This document shows positions 1-23,233 of a DNA stretch of 64,000 nt, in pieces. The translations under genes were made by a program, and so were the position numbers. Each line of letters begins with the position of its first letter. Position 1 is the first letter of the stretch. The DNA lies in the IMG/VR virus record IMGVR_UViG_3300029793_000467; one strand, given 5' to 3'. The notes beneath the pieces were generated by a model. It ran no database searches. It worked only from the letters and a program-made list of their open reading frames with translations, and was not told the origin of the DNA. The stretch comes from a virus.

Positions 1-312
1 TCACGGAAGAATCCTCAGATTTTTAGAAAAAGTTCCTTCGGGGGGGGGGTCTATGCCAGCTTGCTCATACGTGACATCCCCTGCAAGGAACTCAAACAGA
101 AAATCCAAAGCCGCCAGCAGGGCCTCGATAATCACCACGACGGACGGAATGGCCAGAAGCCCGACCGCATACGTTCCAAATACGAGATGAAGCAACACAA
201 TCGCCAGCAACGTGAACACGAACACCGCCAGCAACAGGCTGAAACCCCGATGGAAGGCTTTCAACAATTCGGCTTCGATTCTACGAAACCTTAATCTCGT
301 TTTCTTCGACAT
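1..312 (-). CDS. small hydrophobic membrane protein (103 aa)
   Basis: Complete ORF. The rc TGA stop lies at positions 1-3. Two predicted TM helices. Overlaps the next gene by 32 nt. Confidence 0.4.
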   Translation of the reverse strand: MSKKTRLRFRRIEAELLKAFHRGFSLLLAVFVFTLLAIVLLHLVFGTYAVGLLAIPSVVVIIEALLAALDFLFEFLAGDVTYEQAGIDPPPEGTFSKNLRILP

Positions 313-550
313 GCTTTTCTTGCCTCCAATCGTCCACCGACAGGAGAAACAACGCCAGTGGAAACACGACTAGAAACAGTATGCCGCATACGACGAAAGG
401 CAAACCCCAATACCAAGAAAATCGTTTCAGCAAAAAAGAGCCGACAAGCCCCAACAGGGACACCATTCCGGACAGCAAGTACAAACCCAGACCATACCGG
501 AACATAGCATAGGACACTCGCTCAAGGAACGTTTCGTTCTCCTCCTTCAT
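281..550 (-). CDS. small membrane protein (start at internal Met MKEENETF)
   Basis: ORF 281..613, with the start moved to the Met that precedes the hydrophobic segments. 2-3 TM helices. Confidence 0.4.
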   Translation of the reverse strand: MKEENETFLERVSYAMFRYGLGLYLLSGMVSLLGLVGSFLLKRFSWYWGLPFVVCGILFLVVFPLALFLLSVDDWRQEKHVEENEIKVS

Positions 551-551
551 G

Positions 552-1124
552 TCAGCGCTCCTTTCCGGTCGGGTTCCACACGCCATCGGACTTGTCCAGT
601 TTCGCAAGACCACGGGCTTGCAGACGGTAGGCGATTCGATTCTGCGATTCGGTCAGCTCCTTGTCCTGCCAGATGGCGGACAGGACGGTCTGCTCCTCGT
701 CGGTCAGCATGGATTCCAGCAGTCGGATTCGACGCTCCAACGTCTTCTTGGCGCGGGTGTAGCCGGACTTGTGGTCGCAAGCGAGTTCGGCCATGCCTTT
801 CCAGAATCCTCGCATGTTCTGCCAGTTGAGTCGGGCGAGTTTCCTCAGCATATGCACTGATTCGTCGTCCATGTGGAAGTAACAGTAGGGTGGAACAAAC
901 GAGTCGAGCGGATAGAGTCCAAGAGGCTCGTAGGGGCTTTCCTCTTTCGCTCGGTTCAGATACCAGAGGGCTTTCCTTAAGTCTTCCAGACCGTTCTTGC
1001 CCTGCCAGCGGTACACGTATTTGATTGCGTTGCCTCCTAGGAACGGGTATCGTGATGTCAGTTCGATGCATTCGAAGGGGCCTGACGTGTAGTGGTTGGG
1101 GTGGTTGACGTTATCGTTGTGCAA
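552..1124 (-). CDS. DUF3310-like N-terminal domain fused to C-terminal HTH (sigma region-4/LuxR-like) protein
   Basis: N-terminal motif NHPNHY..FECIE..AIKYVYR, as in phage DUF3310 proteins. The C-terminal segment EEQTVLSAIWQDKELTESQNRIAYRLQARGLAKL looks like an HTH. TTG start with an AGGAG RBS. Confidence 0.5.
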   Translation of the reverse strand: MHNDNVNHPNHYTSGPFECIELTSRYPFLGGNAIKYVYRWQGKNGLEDLRKALWYLNRAKEESPYEPLGLYPLDSFVPPYCYFHMDDESVHMLRKLARLNWQNMRGFWKGMAELACDHKSGYTRAKKTLERRIRLLESMLTDEEQTVLSAIWQDKELTESQNRIAYRLQARGLAKLDKSDGVWNPTGKER

Positions 1125-1680
1125 GTTTTTCTCCTAAACGATAGGCTGTATGTGAACGTTTCCAGTATAGCATACCATTTCTAATGGGGGTAAGAGCCTT
1201 GCGATACTCCTTCGAAAGCTCATCATACGAACGTTTCAAAGACCTAGCCCTCCGATTGTCGCCATCCAAATCCGTGGAGCAATGCAGATTCTCATATTCC
1301 TTCGGTTTCTTATCCTGCAAAGCGGCCAACGTGTCCAAATCATATGATTCGTCCAATTCGTTGAACTTGGAAGACACCTGAGCATACAGTCGGAGCGACT
1401 TATTATACGATTCCGTCATCCTGCTGACTTGTTGGAAACAGGCGTCCTCAGCTTCGGCATGGGCACGCTTCGCCTTGCCTTGGGTATCCCACCAATAGTA
1501 TCCGCCGCCACAACACAAGGACAGGGCGACAAGAACGGACAGTACGGCGGCTATCCTTTTCTGCACACGCTGTCTCGCCCATTCCTCACCATCCCTCACC
1601 CCGGCGGCGATAAGACTATCAAAAGAAGGCGTCTCGCCTATCGTTGTCGGTCGGGCTTGTCTGTTTGAATGCCTTCCCAA
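1111..1680 (-). CDS. membrane-anchored coiled-coil hypothetical protein
   Basis: 189-aa ORF with one TM helix (AAVLSVLVALSLCC). Charged coiled-coil-like C-terminus. Confidence 0.45.
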   Translation of the reverse strand: MGRHSNRQARPTTIGETPSFDSLIAAGVRDGEEWARQRVQKRIAAVLSVLVALSLCCGGGYYWWDTQGKAKRAHAEAEDACFQQVSRMTESYNKSLRLYAQVSSKFNELDESYDLDTLAALQDKKPKEYENLHCSTDLDGDNRRARSLKRSYDELSKEYRKALTPIRNGMLYWKRSHTAYRLGEKLAQR

Positions 1681-1686
1681 TTATGG

Positions 1687-2076
1687 TCAGTCCTTGAAAC
1701 TCGGGAAAGATAAGTCCAGCCTCGGCTCAAACTCCGAACAATACACGGGAGAGCCTTCACAGAGGGCACGGTTGAGGTTTTCAGCGAACTTGTATGCCTG
1801 TAGTCTCCGTTCAGGCTCACTGCCCCGCAAGCATTTGCTGGCGGGAGTGTCTTGGAACCCGTGGGCGTCCTTCTGTGCCTTGGTGAGAAGGTTCTGCAAC
1901 TGTCCGACGGTCAGCGAAGTGGCCTTCCCCGCTTCCAGTCTTCCGGTCTCACGCAGTTTTTGGATGGCATACTCGTTGTGGGACAAGTCCAAGCATGTAT
2001 GCCATTGAGTTTTTCCTTCCGGATTGTCTCCCAGTAGAAGCGTTACCCTTCTGGTGTCCTCTGCGAGTTCCGACAT
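1687..2076 (-). CDS. hypothetical protein (~130 aa)
   Basis: ORF 1687..2298. The N-terminal 74 codons are Arg/His-rich junk-like, so the start was placed at Met MSELAED, which has an AAGGAAAC RBS. Confidence 0.4.
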   Translation of the reverse strand: MSELAEDTRRVTLLLGDNPEGKTQWHTCLDLSHNEYAIQKLRETGRLEAGKATSLTVGQLQNLLTKAQKDAHGFQDTPASKCLRGSEPERRLQAYKFAENLNRALCEGSPVYCSEFEPRLDLSFPSFKD

Positions 2077-2093
2077 TATGTTTTTGTTTCCTT

Positions 2094-2363
2094 TCAGTTT
2101 TTCAGGCCGTAGTAGACGACCCCGTTTGTTTCTTTTGTGCGGTCGAACAGTTCGTGGCCGCGTTGTGTGGTTTCGATGCTTCTGATTACGACTTCCGGCG
2201 CGTCGAAAATGGTCATGGGTTCCTGTCCTGCAAGTTTCGCCCACTGGTTTTGGATGACGGTGAGCGTGACCCGGCTGTTGGAGTCGAGTTGTCGGCATTG
2301 TCGCTCGTGCTGGTGTTTGCGCACGTAGTCGGATGCGACATCGGCCAGTGTGGTTCTAGGCAT
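2094..2363 (-). CDS. hypothetical protein (~89 aa)
   Basis: Start at MPRTTLADV. A weak promoter element lies upstream at 2388-2410. Confidence 0.4.
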   Translation of the reverse strand: MPRTTLADVASDYVRKHQHERQCRQLDSNSRVTLTVIQNQWAKLAGQEPMTIFDAPEVVIRSIETTQRGHELFDRTKETNGVVYYGLKN

Positions 2364-2387
2364 GTGTTTTCCTTGCTTTTGCTTGAA

Positions 2388-2410
2388 TGTGGTTGATTCC
2401 AGTATAACAA
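2388..2410 (-). promoter_or_regulatory. conserved promoter element (weak variant)
   Basis: TTATACTGGAATCAA in gene orientation. Confidence 0.35.
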
Positions 2411-2419
2411 GGAAATGTT

Positions 2420-2824
2420 TCAAATTTGGCTTTTACATAAATTCCGACGCCAACGGGCGAAATATATCCAAGCCGGAATGTCGGCGGAAACCGCCGCCAC
2501 ACCAATCAAGCCAGTCAGAATAGGTCGGACAATCATATCCTCTGGTTCCGAAACCGGCATGAACCAGAGAAGCGGCACCGTTCCAGCCAAGAAAACAATA
2601 CTTACGGCGAGCATGACGAATAGCATGACCTGTTCTATGGGATGTTTGGGTTTATCTGTTTTAGTCCGCGACCTTTTGATTTTTGGCGGCTTACCGTCAT
2701 GCTTGCCATGTCTGCCATACATGGTGGTCTCCCTGTTGTCTGGATGGCTGGACGCCATGCGTGTGATGGACGCGGGGTCGATGACGGTGGTGAGTTCCCC
2801 GGTGTCTTCTGATTGTGGTTTCAA
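2420..2824 (-). CDS. hypothetical membrane protein (TTG start)
   Basis: The conserved promoter element (2841-2863) lies inside the long ORF. An AGGGAG RBS sits 5 nt before TTG 2824. Two TM helices. Confidence 0.45.
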   Translation of the reverse strand: MKPQSEDTGELTTVIDPASITRMASSHPDNRETTMYGRHGKHDGKPPKIKRSRTKTDKPKHPIEQVMLFVMLAVSIVFLAGTVPLLWFMPVSEPEDMIVRPILTGLIGVAAVSADIPAWIYFARWRRNLCKSQI

Positions 2825-2840
2825 AAATACTCCCTCTCTA

Positions 2841-2863
2841 TGTAGATAATCCCAGTATAGTAC
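2841..2863 (-). promoter_or_regulatory. conserved promoter element
   Basis: rc TACTATACTGGGATTATCTACA. Confidence 0.45.
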
Positions 2864-2970
2864 GTGATAGTACATAGTTTTTTCTCGCGCATCACAAAAC
2901 GGATAGTCAAAGTCGATAACAGAAAGGAGCGTGTCCAAAAACGCGCTCCTTAAAAACAAGCCAACAGACA

Positions 2971-3471
2971 CTACCAGTCGATGAGCATGTCGCCGTGGAC
3001 GATTTCTCTCGCATACTTAATCAGGTCGGCGTCCGATTCGACACTGGGGTCGTCCACCAGCCTTTTCAGAGTGTGTAACACCGCTTGCTCGTATCCTTCC
3101 CAAAACTCTTTCGGAAGATATTTGCTCCAAAAATATTCCCCCATGAAAGCCACGCAGGGTTTGCACATTCGGACTATTGGAATATGCTCTTTCGGAGCGT
3201 TCTCGTCTCCCATGGTGAGGAATTCCAGATAAACGTACTTTTTATCCGCTTTGAAGAACAGAATGTTCTCTTTTGCTGGATTAGGGTCGCCTTCCAGTAC
3301 GAAGTCCGGGTCTCCGAAATGCATCCCGAATACGATTCCAGCATCGTAATTGTTGAGCCGATTGACGCAATCGCGGAGTGCTGAACTGTTGCATCGACAC
3401 CAGTTCGGATAATCCGATAACGACACCTCGCATCTGGTACATGCGGGGCATTCTTTTTCTTCGTTTTCCAA
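2971..3471 (-). CDS. Cys-rich hypothetical protein (CPACTRC..C.C, CKPC)
   Basis: ORF 2971..3504. TTG 3471 with an AGAGGA RBS avoids overlap with the upstream gene. Multiple CxxC pairs suggest a zinc-binding protein. Confidence 0.4.
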   Translation of the reverse strand: MENEEKECPACTRCEVSLSDYPNWCRCNSSALRDCVNRLNNYDAGIVFGMHFGDPDFVLEGDPNPAKENILFFKADKKYVYLEFLTMGDENAPKEHIPIVRMCKPCVAFMGEYFWSKYLPKEFWEGYEQAVLHTLKRLVDDPSVESDADLIKYAREIVHGDMLIDW

Positions 3472-3487
3472 TATTATTCCTCTCTTT

Positions 3488-4486
3488 TTAGATAGCCGTT
3501 TCAAGCAGAACCGGGGGAAGGCACTGTTTCCAATTGACTCGCAACGCGCTCGTCAAATCGTTCATGTTCAATGCGAACAGTCCGGAATTCATCAAACCGT
3601 TCAATTCCACGATTGACACTTCACCGTTGATAAGACACAGGTCGAGCGTGTACGCGCCGTAACCGCAGTGGGCGAACATGCGTCCGGCTCGCGTGGCGAA
3701 CTCACGGTATCGTTCCGCCAATTCCGGTCTGAGTTCAACATTCTTAACGGTGGTGTCGTCACGATGCTTCTGCATTTGAGGGTCGAATCTCGTATGCATG
3801 TTGTCGATTGGTGTTTTCAATCCGATATTGCCAGCGCCGCAGACAGGCTGGTTGCCGACCATGAACATGCGATACTCGTATTGGATATCGACATTCTCCT
3901 GAATAAGCAGAGCATTCGGGTCATCATCCGCACGAACAAACGCCCAACCTCCCCACTCCTGCACCTGCTGTTCAAGCTCGTCAAGATTAGTTCCGGAGAT
4001 TTTCAAATTCGGTAGCATTTTGGCTTGGTTCATGAATTTGATGAAGAACGACGAGACACCGTCCTTAATAAGAGAAGCGAACGCATGTTTGATGTCATCC
4101 TCGTAGATGGAACTGAGTTTCGTCTTCCGATGCATGAGCATGCGCACGTTGGGATTGATGGCGTAACGGTCGGCATGAGATGGGTCTGCATACTGGTCGA
4201 TTGGCGGCATGTTCAACACTTGTCCGAAGTGCGGTAATCCGATTAGCCTCTTCGAGTCGAGGTCGGTTTTCCCATGCACTCGGACTATGGCGTCCTCACC
4301 TAGATTGCGGACGCCCCAGTAGAGTCGGGAACAGGTTTCAATCCAATCCTCACGGTCTCCACCTTCCGGCTTGACCTTGCCGACGTACTTTTCCCATATT
4401 TGAATGTAATAGTTAGGGATGCCGGTCATGTCATCGGGGCATTTGACGGGTGGAATGGAAATGACCCACGGTTTCCTATCGGTCAA
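3488..4486 (-). CDS. ATP-grasp-like protein
   Basis: 332 aa. The C-terminal region (CGYGAYTLDLCLINGEVSIVELNGLMNSGLF) resembles an ATP-grasp catalytic tail. TTG start with an AAGGAG RBS. Confidence 0.4.
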   Translation of the reverse strand: MTDRKPWVISIPPVKCPDDMTGIPNYYIQIWEKYVGKVKPEGGDREDWIETCSRLYWGVRNLGEDAIVRVHGKTDLDSKRLIGLPHFGQVLNMPPIDQYADPSHADRYAINPNVRMLMHRKTKLSSIYEDDIKHAFASLIKDGVSSFFIKFMNQAKMLPNLKISGTNLDELEQQVQEWGGWAFVRADDDPNALLIQENVDIQYEYRMFMVGNQPVCGAGNIGLKTPIDNMHTRFDPQMQKHRDDTTVKNVELRPELAERYREFATRAGRMFAHCGYGAYTLDLCLINGEVSIVELNGLMNSGLFALNMNDLTSALRVNWKQCLPPVLLETAI

Positions 4487-4680
4487 TCTATAGCTCCTTT
4501 TCGAGTATTGTTGGCGTATTCGATTCCAGCCTTGAAAGCTTCCACCGCGTAGTCGTGGAGTATTTCAAGCTGTCTGAGACTGAACCCATCCTCCAAATGC
4601 GGGGACAGGTCGGGTAGGTTTTCTTCTATCGTCTCTTCCGACATGTTGGAGATATTCAATTCGCCACTTCTTTGTTTCAT
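4483..4680 (-). CDS. small acidic hypothetical protein
   Basis: The start is uncertain (ATG 4680 or 4644). The promoter element at 4690-4710 lies inside the longer ORF. Confidence 0.3.
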   Translation of the reverse strand: MKQRSGELNISNMSEETIEENLPDLSPHLEDGFSLRQLEILHDYAVEAFKAGIEYANNTRKGAID

Positions 4681-4689
4681 CCGGCGTTT

Positions 4690-4710
4690 GTAAACATCCC
4701 CAGTATAACA
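4690..4710 (-). promoter_or_regulatory. conserved promoter element
   Basis: rc TGTTATACTGGGGATGTTTACA. Confidence 0.45.
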
Positions 4711-4779
4711 AGACATGAATGATATGAAAGACGAAACAGGGGTCTGCACACAAAAGTAAGCCCAGACCCCTATTCGACA

Positions 4780-5835
4780 TCAAAGACCGTGCTTGGTCAG
4801 ATACTTGTTGTTGATGATTTTAAAGCAACGGTTGCTGCCAAGCTCGTTGTACAGGTCGTCGCTCAACCGTTCGCCCGCTTTCGCATGCCAGACGATTCCT
4901 TCGTCCAACAAGTCGCGGGTCACGTTGCCTCTCAGACCATCCACTTTGGCAATCATGTCCATCACATCGCCGGTCGGCTTCCACTCGGTCTCGTCTAACA
5001 GTGGGACGGCGTTGTCAAGCATGGCTTTCGGCCAATCCCTACGGTCGAGTTTCATGTTGTCACGCCATACGGCGAACACGAATGGACGATAGGACGCCAG
5101 CTTCAACCTGTTGCCGTTGACACTTGGGCCGCACAGCTCGAACTGGCAGACCATGCCTTTCTCCAACGCGTCAACCAATCCGGTTTTCACCGCCACCTGC
5201 ATGTTCGTGCATTCCGGCTTCAACTCCCAATTGCGAGAGTAGACGTGAACCGTATCATCCATATCACGGTAGATTGTGGTGCTGGTGCCGTCCACCTTCA
5301 CGGTCGGAGTCCACGCAATCCGCCTGATTTCATCCCAATACGCGGTGAGATTCTGCACTCGTGTGGCGTCGGACTTGGAGCATGGCGCGTTGAAAGCGCC
5401 AATCATGTCACCGCCTTTCAATGGTGGCAGTTCTTCATACTTCCACACGTCCGCCTGTAAGGTGATATCAGTGCCGATGGGAGTGTCCTCCGGTACGCCA
5501 ATCGTTGAAAGCGGCATGACTAGTCCTTGACTGTACACTCCGCGCAGTCGCGCGGTACGTAGCACGTGTCCGGTGATTTCCTTCTCTTCGCCGGTAATCG
5601 TGTTGGACACGGGAACGGTACGCTGACCACGCTTCTGCAAGTCCGTATAGCGTGGGTCGTTGGCTGGAAGCATGGAATCGATTTCGAAATATGCCACATG
5701 GTCGCCGGGCTTTAATCCCATGTCCTTGCCTACTACGACAATCCATCCGCCAATGCGAACCTTCTCGATACGGTCTGCGTTCTCAATGGGATACACTCCC
5801 TCAATCTTTTGAACGCTCACCATTTTTCTAACCAT
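4780..5835 (-). CDS. ATP-dependent RNA ligase-like (nucleotidyltransferase KxDG motif)
   Basis: 351 aa. KVDG (ligase motif I) is embedded in TPTVKVDGTS. The overall architecture resembles the Rnl/DRB0094 RNA-ligase family. AAGGAAAAC RBS. Confidence 0.5.
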   Translation of the reverse strand: MVRKMVSVQKIEGVYPIENADRIEKVRIGGWIVVVGKDMGLKPGDHVAYFEIDSMLPANDPRYTDLQKRGQRTVPVSNTITGEEKEITGHVLRTARLRGVYSQGLVMPLSTIGVPEDTPIGTDITLQADVWKYEELPPLKGGDMIGAFNAPCSKSDATRVQNLTAYWDEIRRIAWTPTVKVDGTSTTIYRDMDDTVHVYSRNWELKPECTNMQVAVKTGLVDALEKGMVCQFELCGPSVNGNRLKLASYRPFVFAVWRDNMKLDRRDWPKAMLDNAVPLLDETEWKPTGDVMDMIAKVDGLRGNVTRDLLDEGIVWHAKAGERLSDDLYNELGSNRCFKIINNKYLTKHGL

Positions 5836-5897
5836 CAGGTTTTCCTTTCTAACAGTAAGAGGAGGGAAGCCGGTATCGGCTCCTCCCCGAAAAAATG

Positions 5898-6785
5898 TCA
5901 GTCCTTGTCAGACAGTGGGGTCAACCGCAACGGGAACTGTTCCTCCAGTTCGAGGGCGATAAGAACCCTTTCGTCCACCGGAACATCATGTGAGGCCAGC
6001 TTGTCCAGCAAAGCCGACAGGCTGGAATGACCTCCCAGATGATACTGTTTGCCACGATACTGTTCCGGCAATGCCACGGGAGTGCGATGCTCCTTGCTCC
6101 ACGGTTCGCTACGCAGAACATCCAACGTGATGGGAGTGTTGGATTCTTCCATCTTGCGACGCGCGTTCCAATACGTTTCGTCGCACTGGTAGCGGCATTC
6201 CGGAACATCCACCTCATACTTTCCATCCTTGTAACGGATGACCGTCACATAGCCGTAAATGTGGGAGTCCTCCTCCCATGGTGTGTAGATGAGCGTCTGA
6301 TAATCCAATTCGTCGTACATCTGGTCGAGACTGACGTTCAAGTAGACGGACAGAAGCCTGACGGTGCCGAAGGAAGCGTGTTCGAGCGCACGCTGGTCGT
6401 GGCTCCAACGGTTGATATCCTCGACAATCTCGTCCACCGGCTTCAACTGTTCCGGGTCAAGGTCGCGGATTTCGTCAACGGAATACGAATCGTATTCGTC
6501 GCATGCGATTTCCTCGGCAAGCTCACGGACGGTCATGCCGCTGGTTGCGAGAATGGTTTTCAGCCCAGACTGCGTGTCGTGGCAGAGCGGACAGCCACAG
6601 TATTGGATGTTGCGCAGATTGCGCATCAACTCCGTGTAATCCTTGCCGGTCGCATAATGGGTGCCGTCCGGCATGGCGTATCCGGGCTTCAAATGGGCGC
6701 GAAGCCCATCCTTGGTCTCCTGCGGGATGGTGTCGGAAACGTATTTGGCGTTCTCTCCGATAATCTGCTTTTCACTGGTGTCCAT
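5898..6785 (-). CDS. hypothetical protein (295 aa)
   Basis: Long ORF with a GAAAGG RBS and the same codon bias as its neighbours. Confidence 0.5.
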   Translation of the reverse strand: MDTSEKQIIGENAKYVSDTIPQETKDGLRAHLKPGYAMPDGTHYATGKDYTELMRNLRNIQYCGCPLCHDTQSGLKTILATSGMTVRELAEEIACDEYDSYSVDEIRDLDPEQLKPVDEIVEDINRWSHDQRALEHASFGTVRLLSVYLNVSLDQMYDELDYQTLIYTPWEEDSHIYGYVTVIRYKDGKYEVDVPECRYQCDETYWNARRKMEESNTPITLDVLRSEPWSKEHRTPVALPEQYRGKQYHLGGHSSLSALLDKLASHDVPVDERVLIALELEEQFPLRLTPLSDKD

Positions 6786-6793
6786 AAAACGGT

Positions 6794-7066
6794 TCAGCCT
6801 TTCTTCTCGCCGGTTTTCTTGGTGGACGTTTTTCGGGTTTTCGGTGGCCTGTGGAATTCAAGAACGTTTTCCTCATTCAAGGATTTGCGTTGCAAGGTCA
6901 TGACGGTTTTATGCGTGCGCATGCAATGCTGGCAGATGACCAATGTTCGAGCGTATGAGCATCGACCGTGACCGCCTGTTTGGACGACGGAGATGATGTA
7001 CTTGTAGCCGGTGTCCAAGTCGGTGACTCTTCCGCACAACATGCACGTGTATTTGGAACAAATCAC
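6794..7066 (-). CDS. small zinc-ribbon protein (CxxC..CxxC)
   Basis: Motifs CMLCGR..CQHC. The start codon is uncertain (GTG, ATT or ATG). Confidence 0.35.
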   Translation of the reverse strand: MICSKYTCMLCGRVTDLDTGYKYIISVVQTGGHGRCSYARTLVICQHCMRTHKTVMTLQRKSLNEENVLEFHRPPKTRKTSTKKTGEKKG

Positions 7067-8020: not shown

Positions 8021-8037
8021 ACCATTAAAGAGGGCAA

Positions 8038-16309: not shown

Positions 16310-16340
16310 GTTGTGTGCTCCTTGGTTTTTCGACCTTGTG

Positions 16341-16366
16341 TGTGTGAACAATTCCAGTATAGCATA
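16341..16366 (-). promoter_or_regulatory. conserved promoter element
   Basis: rc TGCTATACTGGAATTGTTCACACA. Confidence 0.55.
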
Positions 16367-16454
16367 TTTGAGAGAAAGCGCAAAAACACAAAAAACAAAA
16401 AGCCGTGCAAACGCAAAAGCATCCACACGACTCGGGAATTTTCCCCACTATTAG

Positions 16455-16751
16455 TTAGTCAAAGTCCGACGGTTCACCATTGACATAGTTCCAAAACTGG
16501 TCGAAGGCATATTGCGCGGTATCCTTATAACGGCACGGCTTCGGCTGTGCGTTCTTTTCTTTCTCTTCCTGCTCTATCAACTGGTCTATTTGGCTTTGCT
16601 CATTGCGGTGTTGCCACGCGAGAGGCTCGTTGCCTTGGGCTAGGTTCTCATACGCCGTATATTCATGCCCGCGATAGCTATAGACAAGATAAACCATATA
16701 GGCGTCATATCCGTGCCCGTGGTATTTTCTAACGAACGTCGCTTTTCGCAT
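16455..16751 (-). CDS. hypothetical protein (98 aa)
   Basis: ORF. Confidence 0.4.
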   Translation of the reverse strand: MRKATFVRKYHGHGYDAYMVYLVYSYRGHEYTAYENLAQGNEPLAWQHRNEQSQIDQLIEQEEKEKNAQPKPCRYKDTAQYAFDQFWNYVNGEPSDFD

Positions 16752-16842
16752 TGCTGCCCCTCTTGTGAATGGTGGGGCGTGTCTGTCATGGCACGCCCCT
16801 TTGCGTTTTGACGGGTATTGCGCCGTGGGAAACCGTATGTTT

Positions 16843-17166
16843 TTAAGCTTCTACCAGCTCCCACCGGTCTCCAGCCTCTTCGTCGAATTCGCCTAATCGG
16901 AAACCATATGCGGCAAGCCTCCTGTCCGCCGTGGCCTCCCATTCGTCCTCGTCATCGCCGTATACATCTTCGACCCTCTCGGCATCGGAGTAGGAGTCGG
17001 CGCGTCCCAAGTTGATAAGCCATTGGGAGGAGTCAGCCCCCATCCAGATGCCATTGCCGGTGATGGCATCGACGATAAGAAGCGTGTCGAATGCATCGCT
17101 CCCGTAGATGGCTATCGGCTGAACAGTGACGGTCTCGTTGGTGTTGATGTCAAGTGCGGTAAACAT
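16843..17166 (-). CDS. hypothetical acidic protein
   Basis: Start at MFTALD. The promoter element 17194-17217 lies inside the long ORF. Confidence 0.4.
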   Translation of the reverse strand: MFTALDINTNETVTVQPIAIYGSDAFDTLLIVDAITGNGIWMGADSSQWLINLGRADSYSDAERVEDVYGDDEDEWEATADRRLAAYGFRLGEFDEEAGDRWELVEA

Positions 17167-17193
17167 TTCGGTTTTGTCTTTTCTTGTGTTTTT

Positions 17194-17257: not shown

Positions 17258-18181
17258 TTAAATCTCGCGCTCCGCACGCTCCCAAATCTTCCGGCGAATC
17301 TCACTGTCCTCAGAGAACATCGCACCCAACTTCAACACTTGACGAACCGCCTTGCGATAATCCTCCATACGCACACGTAGAGTCCATCGAGCGTCGCCCT
17401 TGAACGCCTGATTGATGAACGAATCCGGCACGTCTCTCATATTCCGAGCCAGCCCGCAACGCTCCAGCCTGTCAGCCTCCTCCCACGCTTTCATAACGAT
17501 TTCACGGGTCGCCCACTGAGGTTTAACGTCCAGCACACTGGCCACGTCTTGCGGTTCGAGTCGTTTGAGCACTTCGTCCACCTCGCTGCCATCGGACGAG
17601 AGGGCCGCTTGGACGCGAATCCCGCTGTAAGGGCTTTCCAGCCAGTGGGACAAGCACTCCTTATCGACGTCATGGTTGCGGATGACATTGTAGACCACGC
17701 GCTCATTCTCCTCATTGAAGAAGTTGCAGACGTCGGCTTTCTTCGCCGCGATATAACGAACCTCCCAATCCTTGTCGTGGGATAGGGCGTTCGACGTTTC
17801 CTTGTCGAGCTTGTCGTACTTGTCGAGCAGTTCCACGGCTTTCCTGCGAATCTCCGCGCTCCTGTCCCGCAGGGCCACTTGGGAAAGTGCGTTGACCGGC
17901 AGGTTGTGAATATCGTATTCGCCCCAGTCGAAGTAGTAGTGTCGGAGCGTGAGCGGGAGTTCAGAAAGTTTGCCGGAGTCGAAATGCTGTCTGATGTCGG
18001 CTAGTTCCTTTTCGCCTTTTTGGGTGAGCTTCCACGAGTACCTGTCTTCGTTGCGTTGTATCAGTCCGGCGTTGGCGAGTTTGGTGAGGTTCCTGTTAGC
18101 GTATGCTTGTTGTTCTGGTTCGCTTTCGAAGAGGAGGAATTCGTAGATTGCGGTTTCGTTCCAATTGATGTTGTCGCTCAT
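17258..18181 (-). CDS. hypothetical protein (307 aa, alpha-helical repeat-like)
   Basis: Long ORF. Promoter element 18206-18230 lies 40 nt upstream. Confidence 0.5.
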   Translation of the reverse strand: MSDNINWNETAIYEFLLFESEPEQQAYANRNLTKLANAGLIQRNEDRYSWKLTQKGEKELADIRQHFDSGKLSELPLTLRHYYFDWGEYDIHNLPVNALSQVALRDRSAEIRRKAVELLDKYDKLDKETSNALSHDKDWEVRYIAAKKADVCNFFNEENERVVYNVIRNHDVDKECLSHWLESPYSGIRVQAALSSDGSEVDEVLKRLEPQDVASVLDVKPQWATREIVMKAWEEADRLERCGLARNMRDVPDSFINQAFKGDARWTLRVRMEDYRKAVRQVLKLGAMFSEDSEIRRKIWERAEREI

Positions 18182-18230: not shown

Positions 18231-18513
18231 AGAATAGAGAAATGCTCAACCCCGAACCCATTGACACTCCCGTGGTTTCAACCACGGGAGTGTCAAGTGA
18301 GCAACGGATACAAGTACGGCCCCGCACGGCATCTGGAGTATTTGAGCGCGCTGTTGCACTCCTTCAACCGTTCTATAGATGTCATTGCCGCCGACACGCA
18401 TCGGAAGGTGTGCGATGAGGAGAATCGTAAGTATGACCGTTTGGAGGATGAGCGGGAGAGGGCTTGGAACGCGGCTCGCTGACGTGGGGTGAGCATCCTT
18501 TTACGTCTACCTA

Positions 18514-18539
18514 TGTTATACTGGAATGGTTCACATAAG
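18514..18539 (+). promoter_or_regulatory. conserved promoter element in opposite (plus) orientation, no obvious downstream gene
   Basis: TGTTATACTGGAATGGTTCACATAAG. Points into the antisense strand of the Abi remnant. Confidence 0.45.
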
Positions 18540-18623
18540 TAGATTTGAACAGAGTCAGTTGGTCGTTGAATCCCAAGAGTTCCCAGAGGTTCCATAGGGC
18601 AAAATCGCCTTGCAGGCCGGTTT

Positions 18624-18773
18624 TCATGTCGTCGGTGTAGGGATTGTCGTGCAGAAGAAGTACGAGTTGTTCGAGAGGAACCTTCGGGCTTTCTCTTCGT
18701 CCATCAGGTCGAAGGTGACGCCATGCGAGACGAGGGTGTTTATCTGCTCATCCAACGTCGCTCGTTGCTTCAT
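18624..18773 (-). pseudogene. Abi_2 (AbiD/AbiF-like) abortive-infection gene N-terminal remnant
   Basis: The minus-strand ORF MKQRATLDEQINTLVSHGVTFDLMDEEKARRFLSNNSYFF... matches the characteristic Abi_2 N-terminus, then stops after 49 codons. The continuation is frame-shifted and unrecognisable. Confidence 0.4.
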
Positions 18774-18786
18774 CTTCACCTCTCAG

Positions 18787-18822
18787 AATAAAAAAACGGC
18801 GGCCGATGAATTCGACCGCCGT
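18787..18822 (-). terminator. rho-independent terminator (minus strand)
   Basis: Hairpin AACGGCGG..CCGCCGTT followed on the minus strand by a T8 run. Confidence 0.5.
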
Positions 18823-19185
18823 TCCGAGACGCCTCGGCGAACCAAGGCTTCTCTACGTTGTATGCCATACAATAGCCGCAATCTCCGGACTTTTCAATGA
18901 TAATCAGCCGTGCACCCAAGTCTTTCCGTTGGTTCTACGGCGTGTCGCTGGCATGCGGCGCGATGTGCCTCATCCTCGCCATCGGCGGACGGACCATCGC
19001 CGCCGGGGTCTTCGGAGCCGCCGCCGGGGTCTTCGGCTACTGCTGGCCTGTCAGACGGTGCGGCTTGTCTGTTATCGGGAAACTGACGCATTGGCCTCCA
19101 TGGTGATAGCGGGGTTTGCCATCCTCGTCTGGCTAGTGGTTCTCGCACGGCGGAATGGAGATTTTTGACGGTTCCAACAAACTAA

Positions 19186-19217
19186 GCTATAGTGGAACTG
19201 TTCACACAAATAAAAGG
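19186..19217 (+). promoter_or_regulatory. conserved promoter element with TTGACG -35
   Basis: TTGACG, a 17-nt spacer, then TATAGTGGAACTGTTCACACA. Confidence 0.55.
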
Positions 19218-19225
19218 GGAGAACG

Positions 19226-19489
19226 ATGACCGTAAACGAACTCATCGAACAATTAAAAAACCTACCCGAGGAAGTACGCGAACGCCCCATCATGGACGGC
19301 AATCCGAACGATGAATACTGGTTGGCCGACCTCCGCGCGATTTCAGTCGCCAAGGTCGTTGTATCCGGCGATGGCGCTTGTAACATGTACGACCCGGTAC
19401 TTTCCGACGAGGAAAACATCGAAGAACTGGAAAACAGATACGACATGTCAATGCATGTCGAACATCGGGCATTGGCGTTCTTCAATTGA
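19226..19489 (+). CDS. hypothetical protein (87 aa)
   Basis: A plus-orientated promoter element lies at 19186-19217, with a TTGACG -35 positioned 17 nt upstream. GGGGAG RBS. Confidence 0.5.
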   Translation: MTVNELIEQLKNLPEEVRERPIMDGNPNDEYWLADLRAISVAKVVVSGDGACNMYDPVLSDEENIEELENRYDMSMHVEHRALAFFN

Positions 19490-19505
19490 GATAGGGGTCG
19501 TACAA

Positions 19506-19976
19506 ATGGACGCGAACACTCCCATTAACATTCCCATCCGTCTTGAACAGTGGATACATGACAACTACATGGAAGTCGAAACCATTATCATCGATGCCCG
19601 GACAATCCTAGACGCAACCGATTTCGACAATCTTCCCGAATGGGAGGATTGGGGCGCGGACTTCATCGCGGAGGACGCTCAAAGAATTGGACTGCTGAAA
19701 ATGTGGTCTGGGCCGTTCACAGTCGAACTATTCAACTGTGACGAGTATCCCGACTATCTCGAATGGCGCAAAACTCATAAGACCGTCGAAGGTGCCGCAG
19801 AACACATTCTCGACTTGAGCAAGAAGGAACTACTGTGGCGAATCGAAGAAACCAAGAAGCAACTAGACAAGTATGTTAGCCAAATGACGCTGTTAAATGG
19901 AGGATTTGTTGACGCCGACAGGAGGGAAGACAAACATGGCCGAGGAATACTGGAAACGTCTTTGCCGCTCGTTTAA
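19506..19976 (+). CDS. hypothetical protein (156 aa)
   Basis: Start at MDANTP. Follows the previous gene by 17 nt. Confidence 0.45.
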   Translation: MDANTPINIPIRLEQWIHDNYMEVETIIIDARTILDATDFDNLPEWEDWGADFIAEDAQRIGLLKMWSGPFTVELFNCDEYPDYLEWRKTHKTVEGAAEHILDLSKKELLWRIEETKKQLDKYVSQMTLLNGGFVDADRREDKHGRGILETSLPLV

Positions 19977-20353
19977 CAAGAAATACGTTCATCAACCAAA
20001 CGCCCGAACCCATCAAACGGAACCAACGAATACACCAACCAGCCAACAAGCGCCAGCAATGCAAGCGCCGCAATCGCATACACCAGCGTACCCACGAACA
20101 AGCCAGCCAAAAACACGTTCATCTGCCGTTTGCGTTGCTCCAGCAGCTCATACCATTCGCTTTCGCACCGGTCGAATGCGTCAGCATCCATGCCGGTGCC
20201 TCCATGGGCTTGAAGCCAATCGCGTACGGTCGGCATGGGAGGTAGCGGGTCGGATATGCAAGCGTGCGGTACAAGCGCGGTTTTAAGCCCTTGCCAAACG
20301 CCGTTGAAAAAGAACGCGGGAAAACGTGCGGCCTTCACCGTGCTGGGTATCAT
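19973..20353 (-). CDS. membrane protein (C-terminal TM)
   Basis: Start at MIPSTV. ATGA overlap with the stop of 20350..21069. Confidence 0.4.
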   Translation of the reverse strand: MIPSTVKAARFPAFFFNGVWQGLKTALVPHACISDPLPPMPTVRDWLQAHGGTGMDADAFDRCESEWYELLEQRKRQMNVFLAGLFVGTLVYAIAALALLALVGWLVYSLVPFDGFGRLVDERISC

Positions 20354-21069
20354 TTTTCCACCTGCTGCCTTCGTCCGACAATCTTCTTGCCGCCCACGCT
20401 CCGCAACCATGCCAAGCCATGACCATAGGAGACCATACCGGCTTCGACGGTTGGATTCTGCTGGAACATGTAATGCACTTCCGCGAGTCCATTGCCTCCG
20501 TTTGTTTGCAGAATACGAATCCCGTAATCCTTTTCGACTGCCTTGACCGCCATGTCCCGTTCGAGTTCGTCGAACCAGCCGTAGAGCGGGAGCATGGCGA
20601 ATGCGGTCAATGCGCCTACGGCGATGAACCGCCAACATGTTTTCGCTCCTACCAACAATGCGATTGCCGCCACGAGAATTCCAATGACGGCGATTCCCGT
20701 CAACAGTTGACGCCATTTGCCGTTGCAGTCGTATTCGACGGGCGCGTACGGGTTGGTGGGGGTTGGTGTTGGAGGTGCGGTTTTGTTGGTTTTGCGTGTG
20801 GCGGGCTTGTAGGCTTTCGGAGCGGTTTTGTTTACTGTTGAAGTGGTTTTCTCGCTCGTCTTGCTGGCGGTTTCGTCGGTGTTTTCAATGGACTTGTCCG
20901 CTGTTTTCGGTTCGAATTTCAATGGTGGTGCCGGTGGGTTCAGCATTTTTCGTTCCGTTTTCTTCACGATTTCTTGCAGTTCGATGGTGGTGGACGAGTC
21001 GGGTTCGTCCATTGGTTTCTGACCTAATATCATGAGGTCGTTTTCCAGTGAGATATTCCGTTCTTTCAT
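20350..21069 (-). CDS. membrane-anchored protein with Thr/Pro/Lys-rich linker
   Basis: Start MKERN with an AAAGGAAG RBS. The 40-bp conserved element lies upstream, inside the longer ORF. One TM helix. Confidence 0.45.
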   Translation of the reverse strand: MKERNISLENDLMILGQKPMDEPDSSTTIELQEIVKKTERKMLNPPAPPLKFEPKTADKSIENTDETASKTSEKTTSTVNKTAPKAYKPATRKTNKTAPPTPTPTNPYAPVEYDCNGKWRQLLTGIAVIGILVAAIALLVGAKTCWRFIAVGALTAFAMLPLYGWFDELERDMAVKAVEKDYGIRILQTNGGNGLAEVHYMFQQNPTVEAGMVSYGHGLAWLRSVGGKKIVGRRQQVEK

Positions 21070-21100
21070 GTAATTCTTCCTTTCTTTTTGCTGAATATGA

Positions 21101-21145
21101 GAGAAGTAGAAGGAAGTAGTAATACGGCAGTCTTCCAATTTTGTG
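21101..21145 (-). repeat. second conserved ~40-bp element, copy 2
   Basis: rc ATTGGAAGACTGCCGTATTACTACTTCCTTCTACTTCTC. Confidence 0.55.
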
Positions 21146-21149
21146 TAGG

Positions 21150-21458
21150 TCAGAGGATTCGGGTTCCCTTGCGGGTGACGAGCATGATTCTGTTTTCGTG
21201 ACGGCTTTCGAAAACGTCCCAGTTGCCGCTCAGGACCGCCAAGCATGCGTCGCCCTTGATGAGGTTCCAACGTTCGTCGCAGTTGGATACGACGTGCTTC
21301 CAGTTGGTTGGGTTGGGCTTGCTGTGGGAGGTTTCCACGATAGCTTCGTTCATGGGCTTGTCCGCGTAGGTGTGGTCGTAGGTGTTGTCTCCGGCGACCA
21401 CGCTGATGGTGCCGTTGTCGTGGAGGATTGGCTGGTAGTAGGTTTTAGTGTCGTTCAT
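21150..21458 (-). CDS. hypothetical protein (102 aa)
   Basis: Start MNDTK with an AAGGAG RBS. The promoter element 21488-21515 lies inside the long ORF. Confidence 0.45.
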   Translation of the reverse strand: MNDTKTYYQPILHDNGTISVVAGDNTYDHTYADKPMNEAIVETSHSKPNPTNWKHVVSNCDERWNLIKGDACLAVLSGNWDVFESRHENRIMLVTRKGTRIL

Positions 21459-21487
21459 TCGTTCTCCTTGGTTGGCTTCCGCCTGTT

Positions 21488-21515
21488 TATGTGGACATTT
21501 CCAGTATAGCATACG
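21488..21515 (-). promoter_or_regulatory. conserved promoter element
   Basis: rc TGCTATACTGGAAATGTCCACATA. Confidence 0.55.
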
Positions 21516-21553: not shown

Positions 21554-21703
21554 CTACGAGTCTTCGTCCCCATCTTCTCCAAGTGCCTGTTCGACCAACA
21601 ATCTGACCGCATCGTTCCACGAGACTTCATGTCGCTCGGCATACTGCATGGTCAGCCGGTACAGTTCGGCGGGCAACATGACCACACGGTTCACGTTAGG
21701 CAT
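21554..21703 (-). CDS. ribbon-helix-helix (CopG/Arc-like) DNA-binding protein
   Basis: MPNVNRVVMLPAELYRLTMQYAERHEVSWNDAVRLLVEQAL resembles the RHH beta-strand plus two helices. Confidence 0.45.
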   Translation of the reverse strand: MPNVNRVVMLPAELYRLTMQYAERHEVSWNDAVRLLVEQALGEDGDEDS

Positions 21704-21707
21704 CACG

Positions 21708-21887
21708 TCAACTCCAGAACAGGTGGGCGAGCGAATCGGCGTCGATGTACCGGCGTCGTCCGATTTTGTAGGTGCGTATGCGACCGGCATTCAGCAGGTC
21801 GTATATGTGCTGGCGTGAGCAGGAGAGGTAGGCCATCGTGTCGGCGATAGTGAGGATGGCTGGCAGTTCCTTGGCTTTGGTTCTCAT
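21708..21887 (-). CDS. excisionase-family HTH (HTH_17/MerR-like) DNA-binding protein
   Basis: LTIADTMAYLSCSRQHIYDLLNAGRIRTYKIGRRRYI matches the excisionase/AlpA-type HTH. Confidence 0.5.
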   Translation of the reverse strand: MRTKAKELPAILTIADTMAYLSCSRQHIYDLLNAGRIRTYKIGRRRYIDADSLAHLFWS

Positions 21888-21904: not shown

Positions 21905-22294
21905 TTAATACCGGTATTCGCAACCGGAATCCACAAACTCGTGTTCGCCATCGCTCCACAGCACGGACACTATGGTCGAAGGGTCGTTCAGGTCGATGAA
22001 AAACGCGGCAAGCTCGTCCGCTGACAAGCGGGAGAACTCCTCGCCCACAGCTTTATAGAATTCGTCCCAAGCGGCTTGGTCGGCGTCCGATTCCATGAGC
22101 GTGGAGAACCGTTCCGCCAGTTGCGTGGATGGGAGTGTGGCATGAGAGAAGCTTTCGTCCGTAATGTCGAGCCAAGTGTTCAAGCACCTGTCGGCCAGTT
22201 CGCCTACCGGAAAGGTCAGCATTCTCGTGGTAGTGCCCGTCCACTTGGTTTTCTTCAGAAAACTGACTTCGACGGCATTGGTCTTGTGTTCCAT
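21905..22294 (-). CDS. hypothetical protein (129 aa)
   Basis: Complete sigma70-like promoter upstream: TTGACG, a 16-nt spacer, then TATACT plus the conserved downstream element. Confidence 0.45.
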   Translation of the reverse strand: MEHKTNAVEVSFLKKTKWTGTTTRMLTFPVGELADRCLNTWLDITDESFSHATLPSTQLAERFSTLMESDADQAAWDEFYKAVGEEFSRLSADELAAFFIDLNDPSTIVSVLWSDGEHEFVDSGCEYRY

Positions 22295-22326
22295 GGTCTG
22301 CGCTCCTATTCATGGCTTTCTGTTTT

Positions 22327-22351
22327 TGTGTGAACAATTCCAGTATATATG
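22327..22351 (-). promoter_or_regulatory. conserved promoter element with TTGACG -35
   Basis: rc TTGACG, a 16-nt spacer, then TATACTGGAATTGTTCACACA. Confidence 0.6.
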
Positions 22352-22408
22352 AATGTACGCGAACGTCAAACCAGCTTCCCACCAAGCGCTTTTTAAAGCA
22401 TTATGGCG

Positions 22409-22624
22409 TCAAAGCGAACCATGTCCGCGTCTTCTCTCCGAGGCGAACTGATGGGCGACTTCATCCAGCTCTTTGGACTCCAACCCGTCCAGCACGGCGA
22501 GTGCGAACCTCACACGCTCACGGTCATCGACCGGCAACCAGATGTCGTCGGCTCCCGCGACGACGTGAATGCCCATGCCGTCGTTGTCGCTGATGTAGTC
22601 GAATCCGTTGAACTTGACGCTCAT
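22409..22624 (-). CDS. hypothetical protein (71 aa)
   Basis: Start MSVKF with an AAGGAGG RBS. Confidence 0.4.
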   Translation of the reverse strand: MSVKFNGFDYISDNDGMGIHVVAGADDIWLPVDDRERVRFALAVLDGLESKELDEVAHQFASERRRGHGSL

Positions 22625-22640
22625 GCTTCCTCCTTTTTTC

Positions 22641-23129
22641 TCAGTCTTCCCCGTTGCCTGAACGATGCGACGTAATACGGTTCCAATGTTTTGAGTACAC
22701 GTCCCATACGTTTTCGGAATCAACGTTCAGCATTTCCTCGAAAGCGGCTTTGCCGACGTCGCTGAGACGGCTGATGTTGCGCAGAATATCCGCCACCTTG
22801 TCCGCTTCGTACAGTTTGTTCTGGCTGTCCTCCAATTCTTGAGATTGGGTGCTGGTGAGGTGTTGGAGATAGTTTTCGAGCAGTTCCCAGCCTTTGTCCG
22901 AGGATGAGATGTAGGCGGGTTTTGTGAGACGCCAGTCTTCGAGTATGTCTTCCCAAGGGTCGGTTTTGACGTCGTAGATTCCGGCGTCTTCTTCGTGGGG
23001 GAGGTTTTTGATTTGTTTCTGGTTGCCGTCTTCGTCCAAGTAGTCGATGGTGAGGTATTCGATTGTGTCGTTTCGGTCGAAGAGGTTGTGTGATGTGGTG
23101 ATTTTGAGGCTGGTGATGGTCTTAATCAT
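22641..23129 (-). CDS. hypothetical acidic protein (162 aa)
   Basis: Promoter element 23159-23183, with a TTGATG -35 region. Confidence 0.45.
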   Translation of the reverse strand: MIKTITSLKITTSHNLFDRNDTIEYLTIDYLDEDGNQKQIKNLPHEEDAGIYDVKTDPWEDILEDWRLTKPAYISSSDKGWELLENYLQHLTSTQSQELEDSQNKLYEADKVADILRNISRLSDVGKAAFEEMLNVDSENVWDVYSKHWNRITSHRSGNGED

Positions 23130-23158
23130 TTTGGTTCCCTTTGTTTTCCAAGCATGTT

Positions 23159-23183
23159 TTGTGTGAACAATTCCAGTATAACG
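23159..23183 (-). promoter_or_regulatory. conserved promoter element with TTGATG -35
   Basis: rc TTGATG, a 16-nt spacer, then TTATACTGGAATTGTTCACACA. Confidence 0.6.
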
Positions 23184-23233
23184 AGAATGTAGGGGAACAT
23201 CAAATCAGCTTCCAGCCAAGCGCGATTTTAAAG

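Follow-up and report, generated by a model that had tools for sequence, protein, structure and literature searches.

An array of small genes between two conserved blocks

We analysed a 64,000-nucleotide stretch of DNA (the window) that is filed in IMG/VR as the virus record IMGVR_UViG_3300029793_000467 and corresponds to bases 146-64,145 of the 197-kb Joint Genome Institute (JGI) metagenome contig Ga0243736_1000055; about 120 kb of the element lies outside this view. The first 23.2 kb of the window carry an array of small genes, which a first-pass annotation had regarded as the leading region, or anti-defence island, of a conjugative plasmid or integrative and conjugative element.

The region 1-23,200 holds about 46 genes, on which a codon-usage-based caller and the gene calls of JGI for that contig agree; 43 of them are encoded by the minus strand (two-sided binomial p ~5e-10). 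They are short (median length 113 amino acids (aa), with 31 genes below 150 aa), they fill 85% of the bases, and 17 of 45 array proteins have an isoelectric point (pI) below 5. The array genes are real, and not noise from open reading frames, because the ratio of nonsynonymous to synonymous polymorphism (pN/pS) is 0.03-0.53 in 41 of the 42 genes with diverged homologues (76-99% nucleotide (nt) identity) in related contigs. The unidirectional array of about 45 genes described at first pass stands as regards size, density and strand bias, but four or five genes run in the opposite direction, among them the TnpB gene and a cassette at 19226-19976 on the plus strand, and the many ATGA overlaps reduce to just four 4-base start/stop overlaps, which read TTGA or GTGA. 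Most of the genes do indeed have no recognisable domain, about 38 of the 46 being without a Pfam or PHROG function. Neither Rfam families nor tRNA genes were found in the window. The features of the array and of its right border are as follows, "motif" standing for the shared promoter motif described below.

1-312 and 281-613, minus: two small membrane-protein genes (open reading frames with hydrophobic segments; pN/pS 0.27), the last array genes inside the window
552-1124, minus: DUF3310-domain protein (Pfam 1.2e-11; PHROGs families labelled 'nucleotide kinase', 1e-26), with its own motif at 1148-1169
1111-1599, 1687-2076, 2094-2363, 2420-2824 and 2971-3324, minus: five small genes without a function
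3488-4486, minus: ATP-grasp-like protein (R2K clade, weak; Pfam R2K_3 3.3e-4, below the cut-off)
4780-5835, minus: RNA ligase with an N-terminal PHA02142 oligonucleotide-binding fold (Pfam 6.4e-20; RNA_ligase 4.3e-9; phrog_968 5.5e-46; KVDG)
5898-9222, minus: eight family-less genes
9223-9807, minus: DnaQ/RNase T-type 3'-5' exonuclease, DEDDh class (RNase_T 6.3e-32; phrog_192 1.3e-44), motif at 9832-9853
10156-10551, minus: acidic 131-aa protein with a DUF1831-type fold (AlphaFold2 pLDDT 93 with 52 homologues; Foldseek PDB 2IAY, E 6.6e-5)
11017-11472, minus: GNAT acetyltransferase (Pfam Acetyltransf_1/7/10, 1e-7; phrog_13728)
11768-13394, plus: inserted IS200/IS605-type element with TnpB (coding sequence 11866-13314; OrfB_IS605 and Cas12f1-like_TNB), not part of the array proper
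13381-14968, minus: five small genes (80, 54, 84, 124 and 120 aa) in two motif-led units (14124, 15005)
15155-16009, minus: predicted ArdC-type anti-restriction protein (ArdcN 5.4e-12 and Peptidase_M78 1e-7, HETAH; phrog_7245, anti-restriction)
16052-17169, minus: three small genes, every one of them under a separate motif promoter
17258-18181, minus: 307-aa helical-repeat protein (HEAT-like, weak; pN/pS 0.45, relaxed constraint), weakly similar to pMP7017 79231-80163
18260-19990, both strands: variant-specific inserted segment, absent from nine spanning IMG/VR relatives (L096-L104)
18624-18779, minus: 41-aa N-terminal remnant of an Abi-type gene (phrog_2158 5e-5), with a motif at 18517 (plus) in the same segment
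19226-19489 and 19506-19976, plus: plus-strand cassette with its own motif at 19188 (plus)
19973-21458, minus: three genes, for membrane proteins of 72 and 239 aa and a 102-aa protein
21554-21703, minus: ribbon-helix-helix (RHH)-like 49-aa protein, recognised by eye and not confirmed by Pfam
21708-21887, minus: 59-aa protein of the HTH_17, Xis/AlpA-like type (Pfam HTH_17 5.6e-10)
21905-23129, minus: three small genes for acidic proteins (129, 71 and 162 aa), the first units of the array, with motifs at 22326 and 23159
23326-23362, minus: strong intrinsic terminator (15-bp stem, 10 GC pairs) closing the DnaB-SPFH operon, the functional right boundary of the array
23470-29393, minus: conserved upstream operon, 47-54% identical (aa) to the DnaB region of pMP7017
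Members of this operon, minus: 74-aa, 183-aa (phrog_1229), 587-aa (phrog_5931) and 125-aa proteins, DnaB (25120-26460), SPFH/Band_7 protein (23691-25070) and a 49-aa protein

Several of the recognisable genes were correctly named at first pass. The product of 15155-16009 is, as predicted from its domains, a bona fide two-domain ArdC combining a single-stranded DNA (ssDNA)-binding ArdC-N domain (46.4 bits, cut-off 22.6) with an HExxH zinc peptidase of the M78 family (32.2 bits, cut-off 22). The DnaQ-like exonuclease has the DEDDh motifs and is 56% identical (aa) to a 3'-5' exonuclease of the Bifidobacterium megaplasmid pMP7017, and the GNAT assignment was likewise borne out by Pfam. As for the proposed pair of an RNA ligase and an ATP-grasp protein, the ligase is supported by Pfam, by its KxDG motif and by 62% aa identity to the RNA ligase of pMP7017; the putative ATP-grasp assignment draws its main support from 33% identity to a pMP7017 'ATP-grasp domain-containing protein', next to the sub-threshold R2K_3 match. 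Similarly, the proposed RHH/Xis-like regulators were upheld for the HTH_17 protein, but the RHH protein next to it has no Pfam support.

Among the remaining genes, 2094-2363 encodes a protein with 52% aa identity to the product of a pMP7017 gene that lies just upstream of the type IV secretion system (T4SS) block of that plasmid, and the 295-aa product of 5898-6785 is very acidic (net charge -24). Zinc-ribbon-type proteins with CxxC motifs are encoded at 6794-7066, 7239-7865 and 8399-8968; the last of these had been considered Lar-like, an idea that we dropped as it has no similarity to the Lar protein of pMP7017. The TnpB element shares 94% nt identity with copies in B. longum megaplasmids, and IS200/IS605 elements (TnpA and/or TnpB) occur at several differing sites in or near the array across relatives (for example L014:14164-15750, versus 11768-13394 in the window).

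An anti-defence screen and structure predictions had been proposed at first pass. PADLOC, run on ten candidates, matched no array protein tested. The model of the 10156-10551 product matches the DUF1831 fold alone, which is without known function and silent on defence; the 108-aa product of 16843-17169, modelled without an alignment, reached a pLDDT of 48 and was unusable. A polyprotein tblastn search with 37 orphan proteins found phage homologues for three genes and plasmid homologues for four. The homologues of 10156-10551 occur in SPbeta-like Bacillus phages, where the gene sits in a small-gene array downstream of methylases, and in B. longum and Curtobacterium megaplasmids. Those of 16455-16751 and of the very acidic 16843-17169 product (pI 4.1) are 46-52% identical, belong to a small family (59 representative clusters) and are the first genes of a terminal early array in small Bifidobacterium phages, which in phage BP1 also holds a methylase and a ssDNA-binding protein (SSB). 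The phage homologues of the three orphan genes thus sit in early arrays beside methylases or SSB, as would suit genes engaged in conflict with the host.

Conserved blocks flank the variable array on either side, DnaB upstream and T4SS downstream. Its right boundary, as drawn at first pass, is truly transcriptional, because the terminator at 23362-23326 is followed by the promoter that starts the array (23159-23203, with its motif at 23159-23180); the same-strand run of genes itself takes in the DnaB operon as well and reaches 29,393. At its other end the array extends about 0.7 kb past position 1, according to the JGI/ENA gene calls in relatives L008-L017. In 99% identical relatives (L008-L017 and L075) the left flank carries, on the same strand, a 177-aa gene, a motif promoter and genes of 179 and 105 aa. 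Next on that strand come an LRV-repeat protein, often split by IS200/IS605 elements, an 886-aa VirB4-like ATPase (AAA_10 1.8e-11), a 256-aa protein and a 777-aa hydrolase with lysozyme, glucosaminidase and CHAP domains. Beyond the hydrolase lie two minus-strand genes and then two FtsK/SpoIIIE-type ATPases. The block has its syntenic counterpart at 83.3-103 kb of pMP7017, and the VirB4-like proteins of the two are 66% identical. The T4SS-like genes that the first-pass annotation had placed further right thus adjoin the left edge of the window instead. That annotation probably meant the 886-aa protein at 38122-40782, which has transmembrane and P-loop segments; we rejected it as a T4SS coupling protein since it has no coupling-protein or VirB4 match at E<=1 and is not similar to the VirB4-like protein of the left flank.

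Identity, host and mosaicism of the element

We identify the element as a conjugative-family plasmid, and not a phage. Megablast of the window against 50,697 phage records returned zero matches, and PHROGs and Pfam searches found no capsid, terminase, portal or tail gene among the window proteins screened, in the 20-kb left flank or in the full annotation of pMP7017, so that the adjacent phage structural genes that would have spoken for a phage early region were not encountered. At the DNA level the TnpB insertion alone matched PLSDB, and the ArdC genes of other actinobacterial plasmids were the sole matches in a distant blastn search. The large backbone proteins have their sole relatives in the pMP7017 family (megaplasmids of Bifidobacterium breve and B. 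longum; 35-48% identity). Conjugation of pMP7017 has been shown experimentally, and the backbone of the element is collinear with it at 30-66% aa identity. When the window was compared with the complete pMP7017 by local tblastn, its 29.5-62.5 kb proved collinear with 55.9-11.3 kb of that plasmid and the DnaB block was kept, while among the 48 genes predicted in 1-23.6 kb just 7 had pMP7017 homologues.

The first-pass claim of a plasmid-type element with a replicon to the right of the array agrees with these findings: alongside ParA and the VirB4-like, hydrolase and FtsK-like block, the region 47800-49110 is a complete iteron replicon.

47800-48669, minus: RepA_C-type initiator, 27-35% identical to RepA and to the experimentally verified RepB of pMP7017
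48828-49000: six 22-bp iterons AAGTTGGAACTTCTGACACGG, with an AT-rich stretch near 49070-49110

The two elements share a collinear block of a ParA-like protein, a 398-aa protein, an 886-aa P-loop protein, a 1343-aa protein and ParA, the DnaB block, the VirB4-like-hydrolase-FtsK block, a RepA_C-type initiator and a run of small genes between the DnaB and T4SS blocks, with homologous RNA ligase, ATP-grasp and exonuclease genes and a promoter-overlapping motif that occurs about 25 times. They differ in that their proteins are 30-66% identical, the host here is B. adolescentis, about 85% of array genes lack a counterpart in pMP7017, the array has no CRISPR-Cas insert, and ArdC is found here versus a Lar homologue there.

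Further features of the window lie to the right of the array. The backbone block 35286-47691 (plus), 48-66% identical (aa) to pMP7017, encodes a ParA-like 396-aa protein, the 398-aa protein, the 886-aa protein (transmembrane segments, Walker A/B), the 1343-aa protein and ParA; according to Pfam, the window has two ParA-type genes in all. The large proteins of this block gave no match in Pfam, NCBIfam or PDB sequences. At 31293-32249 (plus) an AAA ATPase corresponds to IetA of the Iet defence system (PADLOC 2e-62); a recognisable IetS protease is missing downstream, where family-less genes of 88, 99 and 254 aa come next, and the locus may be a variant or partial Iet system. A protein with a DUF1524/GmrSD_C nuclease domain (50859-51884, plus) is conserved with pMP7017. 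The orphan N6/N4 DNA methyltransferase mentioned at first pass is indeed present at 54650-55606 (plus), 31 kb from the array on the other arm, with no partner restriction gene recognised.

As judged from sequence identity, the host of the element is B. adolescentis, because a homologue that is 92% identical to the 1343-aa backbone protein bears that name at NCBI. This homologue lies on a 196-kb contig of the B. adolescentis assembly GCA_028198935.1, which has the same backbone; two scans of species-representative genome contigs gave no match. In the assembly collection, 1064 blocks contain the exact DUF3310 protein, many of the contigs being 210-236 kb long, and the backbone cluster at 90% identity has 1196 member sequences. 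The element is, in short, a megaplasmid of ~197-236 kb that is very common in public gut metagenomes, and apparently no other large plasmid of B. adolescentis is as common. A literature search for a B. adolescentis megaplasmid found no paper describing it. IMG/VR files contigs of the element as viral, which looks like a misclassification.

Alignment of the window with 23 related loci showed that the array is a mosaic. Positions 1-7,865 are about 99% conserved among relatives, whereas the part from 7.9 to 23 kb varies like a patchwork, at 76-97% identity, and has swapped cassettes. ArdC is dispensable, being found in 9 IMG/VR contigs versus 26-52 contigs for the backbone genes. Cassettes that are present in relatives and lacking in the window encode DUF2786/DUF7168 and DUF6273 proteins, a HicB antitoxin, an AAA_16 ATPase and a defence-type reverse transcriptase (PADLOC RT/DRT 8e-26). 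The latter, a 409-aa protein at L100:1506-2735 (IMGVR_UViG_3300045988_186834), lies upstream of ArdC in some relatives; defence and candidate anti-defence genes therefore share the array. The junctions between homology blocks fall within 25 nt of a motif site in 7 of 52 clusters versus 2.6 expected (p ~0.015), which is no more than suggestive of recombination near the motif sites.

A shared promoter motif

The motif TATACTGGAAYTGTTCACACAA, which was spotted by reading the regions upstream of the genes, has 15 matches at <=3 mismatches versus 0 expected. A position weight matrix scan retrieved 24 sites in the window (17 within 1-23.2 kb and 7 elsewhere) and 25 in pMP7017, versus ~0 in shuffled sequences. 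The starts of the array sites are as follows.

Minus strand: 1148, 2385, 2838, 4686, 7993, 9832, 10962, 14124, 15005, 16340, 17192, 18205, 21487, 22326 and 23159
Plus strand: 18517 and 19188

Every site lies 20-45 nt before a start codon and points in the same direction as its gene. The motif is made up of an extended -10 element (TGnTATACT) and a conserved +1 region with a TGTnnACA mini-palindrome, and the promoters are of the short, double-strand, extended -10 type. Since the motif heads each unit, the array consists of about 17 mini-operons (1-4 genes each) of one plasmid-specific regulon, and is not a single operon.

A 34-bp motif has been described in pMP7017, with 19 sites covering 56 genes of many categories (~24% of the genes), and is absent from chromosomes; it was proposed to be a transcription-factor site defining a 'plasmid-specific regulon' (Dineen et al. 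2024, PMC10832533). The array motif is the local B. adolescentis version of that motif, from which it has diverged in sequence (GGAAYTGTTCACACAA here versus GAATATGTCCACATAA in pMP7017).

As regards a possible regulator, 56611-57512 (minus) encodes a pair that pMP7017 shares and that resembles ImmR/ImmA of ICEBs1: an ImmA/IrrE-type peptidase and a small, ImmR-like partner (57132-57512) with a weak helix-turn-helix (HTH). Upstream of the pair, at 57736-57757, lies a degenerate copy of the motif. As a guess, the pair may regulate the plasmid regulon.

Possible roles of the array

The best-fitting analogue of the array is, in our view, the multi-operon establishment regulon, or anti-defence island, of the pLS20 family. 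In these plasmids, variable mosaic genes including ardC form several clustered operons with a shared upstream regulatory sequence (Val-Calvo et al. 2021, PMC8708921), and in clade II an autoregulated repressor, which is not transferred, leads to transient expression of the operons in the recipient (PMC8708921). Similarly, the array has 17 motif sites in 23 kb, each heading a gene, and includes ardC; its small variable operons are clustered beside conjugation genes, and its gene content is mosaic while the conjugation genes are kept (66% identity to pMP7017 for the VirB4-like protein, most array genes being without a homologue). The two systems have no sequence relationship and differ in their shared element (a ~22-34-bp motif at -10/+1 here versus the 400-600-bp EGeRS1 region) and in expression, which is transient in pLS20, whereas motif promoters are active in established pMP7017 hosts; transient expression would here have to be supposed. 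The predicted ArdC itself shares the ArdC-N plus M78/zincin HExxH layout and the plasmid location with ArdC of the IncW plasmids pSa/R388 and with ArdC-like proteins of actinobacterial plasmids, differing from the actinobacterial genes in sequence (65-75% nt identity over 120-250 nt); its activity is a prediction.

From this analogy and the findings above, we propose, as a fairly probable reading, that a pMP7017-type conjugative megaplasmid of B. adolescentis carries its hyper-variable cargo in this region, which works as an establishment or conflict island. The palindrome in the +1 region would probably be an operator, at which a repressor encoded by the plasmid backbone, possibly the ImmA/IrrE and weak-HTH pair, would keep the strong promoters in check. 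Upon entry into a repressor-free cell, all units would fire together and supply functions that help the plasmid to settle. ArdC would counteract restriction; the RNA ligase and the ATP-grasp protein may operate in RNA repair or modification; the exonuclease, the acetyltransferase and the ~38 orphan, often acidic, small proteins would complete the set, some of the orphans likely inhibiting host defences. Related plasmids would exchange cassettes, in part at or close to the shared promoter sequence, thereby generating the mosaic. Apart from ArdC, we infer the anti-defence roles of the array genes, including the counter-defence role of the orphans, and the same applies to repressor control with burst expression and to recombination at the motif.

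Several observations weigh against this proposal. The pMP7017 motif was found through genes that are highly expressed in log-phase, established cells (PMC10832533); motif promoters are therefore not silent after establishment, which weakens the burst-expression step. The motif also occurs plasmid-wide, in front of the ssb gene, the tRNA array and the T4SS operon of pMP7017 and at the 7 further sites in the window, and thus marks a plasmid-wide regulon and not the island alone. ArdC is the sole array gene of a known anti-defence family and is carried by a minority of relatives, the PADLOC, Pfam and PHROG screens leave ~38 array genes without a function, and the sole good structure says nothing on defence. 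Since defence-type and toxin-antitoxin cassettes occupy the same place in relatives, the island is a mixed cargo. No regulator is tied to the motif: the in-array RHH/HTH pair (21554-21887) is missing from many relatives, and the ImmR/ImmA-like link is a guess. Finally, the junction enrichment near the motif is modest, and selection against breaks inside genes could yield the same pattern.

Much of this evidence lends itself to another reading, namely that the array belongs to a general accessory or host-interaction regulon, in which constitutive genes for nucleic-acid metabolism and membrane proteins, together with selfish cargo, occupy a permissive spot between essential blocks and have no link to entry. 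The high activity of the motif promoters in established pMP7017 hosts and the many categories of the ~24% of genes that they serve would be expected in that case, as would the reverse transcriptase, HicB, AAA ATPase and IS605 cargo of relatives and the insertion sequence and Abi remnant in the array. We nevertheless find this reading doubtful, given the purifying selection on nearly all of the small orphan genes, the presence of ArdC, the genes common to phage early arrays and the strong likeness in organisation to the pLS20 establishment islands. Phage links could also be taken to point to the early region of a jumbo phage or phage-plasmid, together with the viral filing of the contigs in IMG/VR, the matches to phage families (DUF3310, the PHA02142-type ligase, phrog_5931 and phrog_1229) and the phage-tail-lysozyme domain of the left-flank hydrolase. 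Such an origin is extremely improbable in view of the zero megablast matches and the structural-gene screens reported above, the iteron replicon and ParA, the VirB4-like and FtsK-like conjugation ATPases, and the conjugative transfer of pMP7017.

The first-pass reading in its strict form, i.e. an origin of transfer (oriT) located just left of the window, transfer of the plus strand and an array that enters first and is transcribed from the incoming ssDNA as in F/IncI plasmids, is a possible but unlikely special case. Anti-defence genes of leading regions use the transferred strand as template and point the same way as the tra genes (Samuel et al. 2024, PMC11541004), and the minus-strand array is co-directional with the downstream VirB4-like/hydrolase operon, its transcription running towards that operon as it does in F-like plasmids. 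Because of this match in orientation, an oriT at the array-T4SS junction would make the array a textbook leading region, whereas an oriT near 29-35 kb would leave it in the wrong orientation. The array resembles those islands further in its unidirectional small uncharacterised genes, which include an anti-restriction gene, in its interruption by insertion sequences, and in an orientation compatible with transcription from the transferred strand; ArdC, an ssDNA-binding protein, is a classic establishment gene. The published islands are defined by a known oriT (PMC11541004), however, whereas no relaxase or oriT was recognisable in the window, its flanks or pMP7017. The relaxase searches (Pfam, NCBIfam, PHROGs and PDB sequences) were negative for the 587, 886, 1343, 426, 398 and 523-aa window proteins, the FtsK neighbours and the 711-aa protein of pMP7017. 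This last protein, which follows the FtsK pair, is an acidic low-complexity membrane protein and not a relaxase, while the 523-aa window protein weakly resembles phage replication initiators; MOB-suite types all six PLSDB relatives as non-mobilizable. Non-coding DNA conserved with pMP7017 was considered as a lead to oriT and discarded, its sole match (21486-21513) being the promoter motif, and the inverted repeats at the array/T4SS junction are short and unconvincing. Rfam and repeat searches found no Frpo/ssi-type features in the window, and the promoters are ordinary extended -10 promoters of double-stranded DNA, not long hairpin promoters of ssDNA. The array also differs from the published islands (PMC11541004) in containing no ssb, psiB, umuDC or methyltransferase gene, with one recognised anti-defence gene; ssb is absent from the window and from the related loci examined, and that of pMP7017 lies ~75 kb from the homologous array. 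The dispensable ArdC would moreover be located about 16 kb into the array. Since the establishment genes of pLS20 lie on the strand that is not the template relative to transfer (PMC8708921), such islands need not be 'leading'. The missing relaxase and oriT, the ordinary promoters and the pLS20 precedent are why we grant the strict form little credence and consider the broader establishment or conflict island fairly probable. In B. breve UCC2003, a chromosomal relaxase and MobC are up-regulated when the strain carries pMP7017 (PMC10832533); as no plasmid relaxase is known, the question arises of whether a host-encoded relaxase takes part in transfer.

A more far-reaching version of the establishment-island proposal is a promoter-tagged cassette system, in which the shared promoter/operator would both wire new genes into a zygotically induced establishment regulon and offer a short homology for the swapping of cassettes among co-resident megaplasmids, several of the ~38 orphans would be new anti-defence families that act in Bifidobacterium, and the plasmid would have an undescribed type of relaxase and oriT. 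Such a system would be a functional parallel to integron arrays, minus the integrase. Taken as a whole, parallel included, we regard this version as improbable.

What is new here is an apparently undescribed, highly prevalent B. adolescentis plasmid with a candidate pool of counter-defence genes. It is an extension and not a new principle, because the island concept and the motif of the sister family pMP7017 have already been published (PMC8708921, PMC11541004, PMC10832533). By way of the shared promoter/operator, related plasmids can be searched for all members of the regulon. Genetic work on bifidobacteria is difficult, mainly on account of their restriction and other defences. The island is a compact, naturally shuffled set of about 40 small proteins under purifying selection, with one predicted ArdC and a few proteins common to phage early arrays. 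If some of the orphan proteins do inhibit bifidobacterial defences, they would be tools for the transformation or conjugation of probiotic strains, and they would extend the 'anti-defence island' concept to Actinomycetota.

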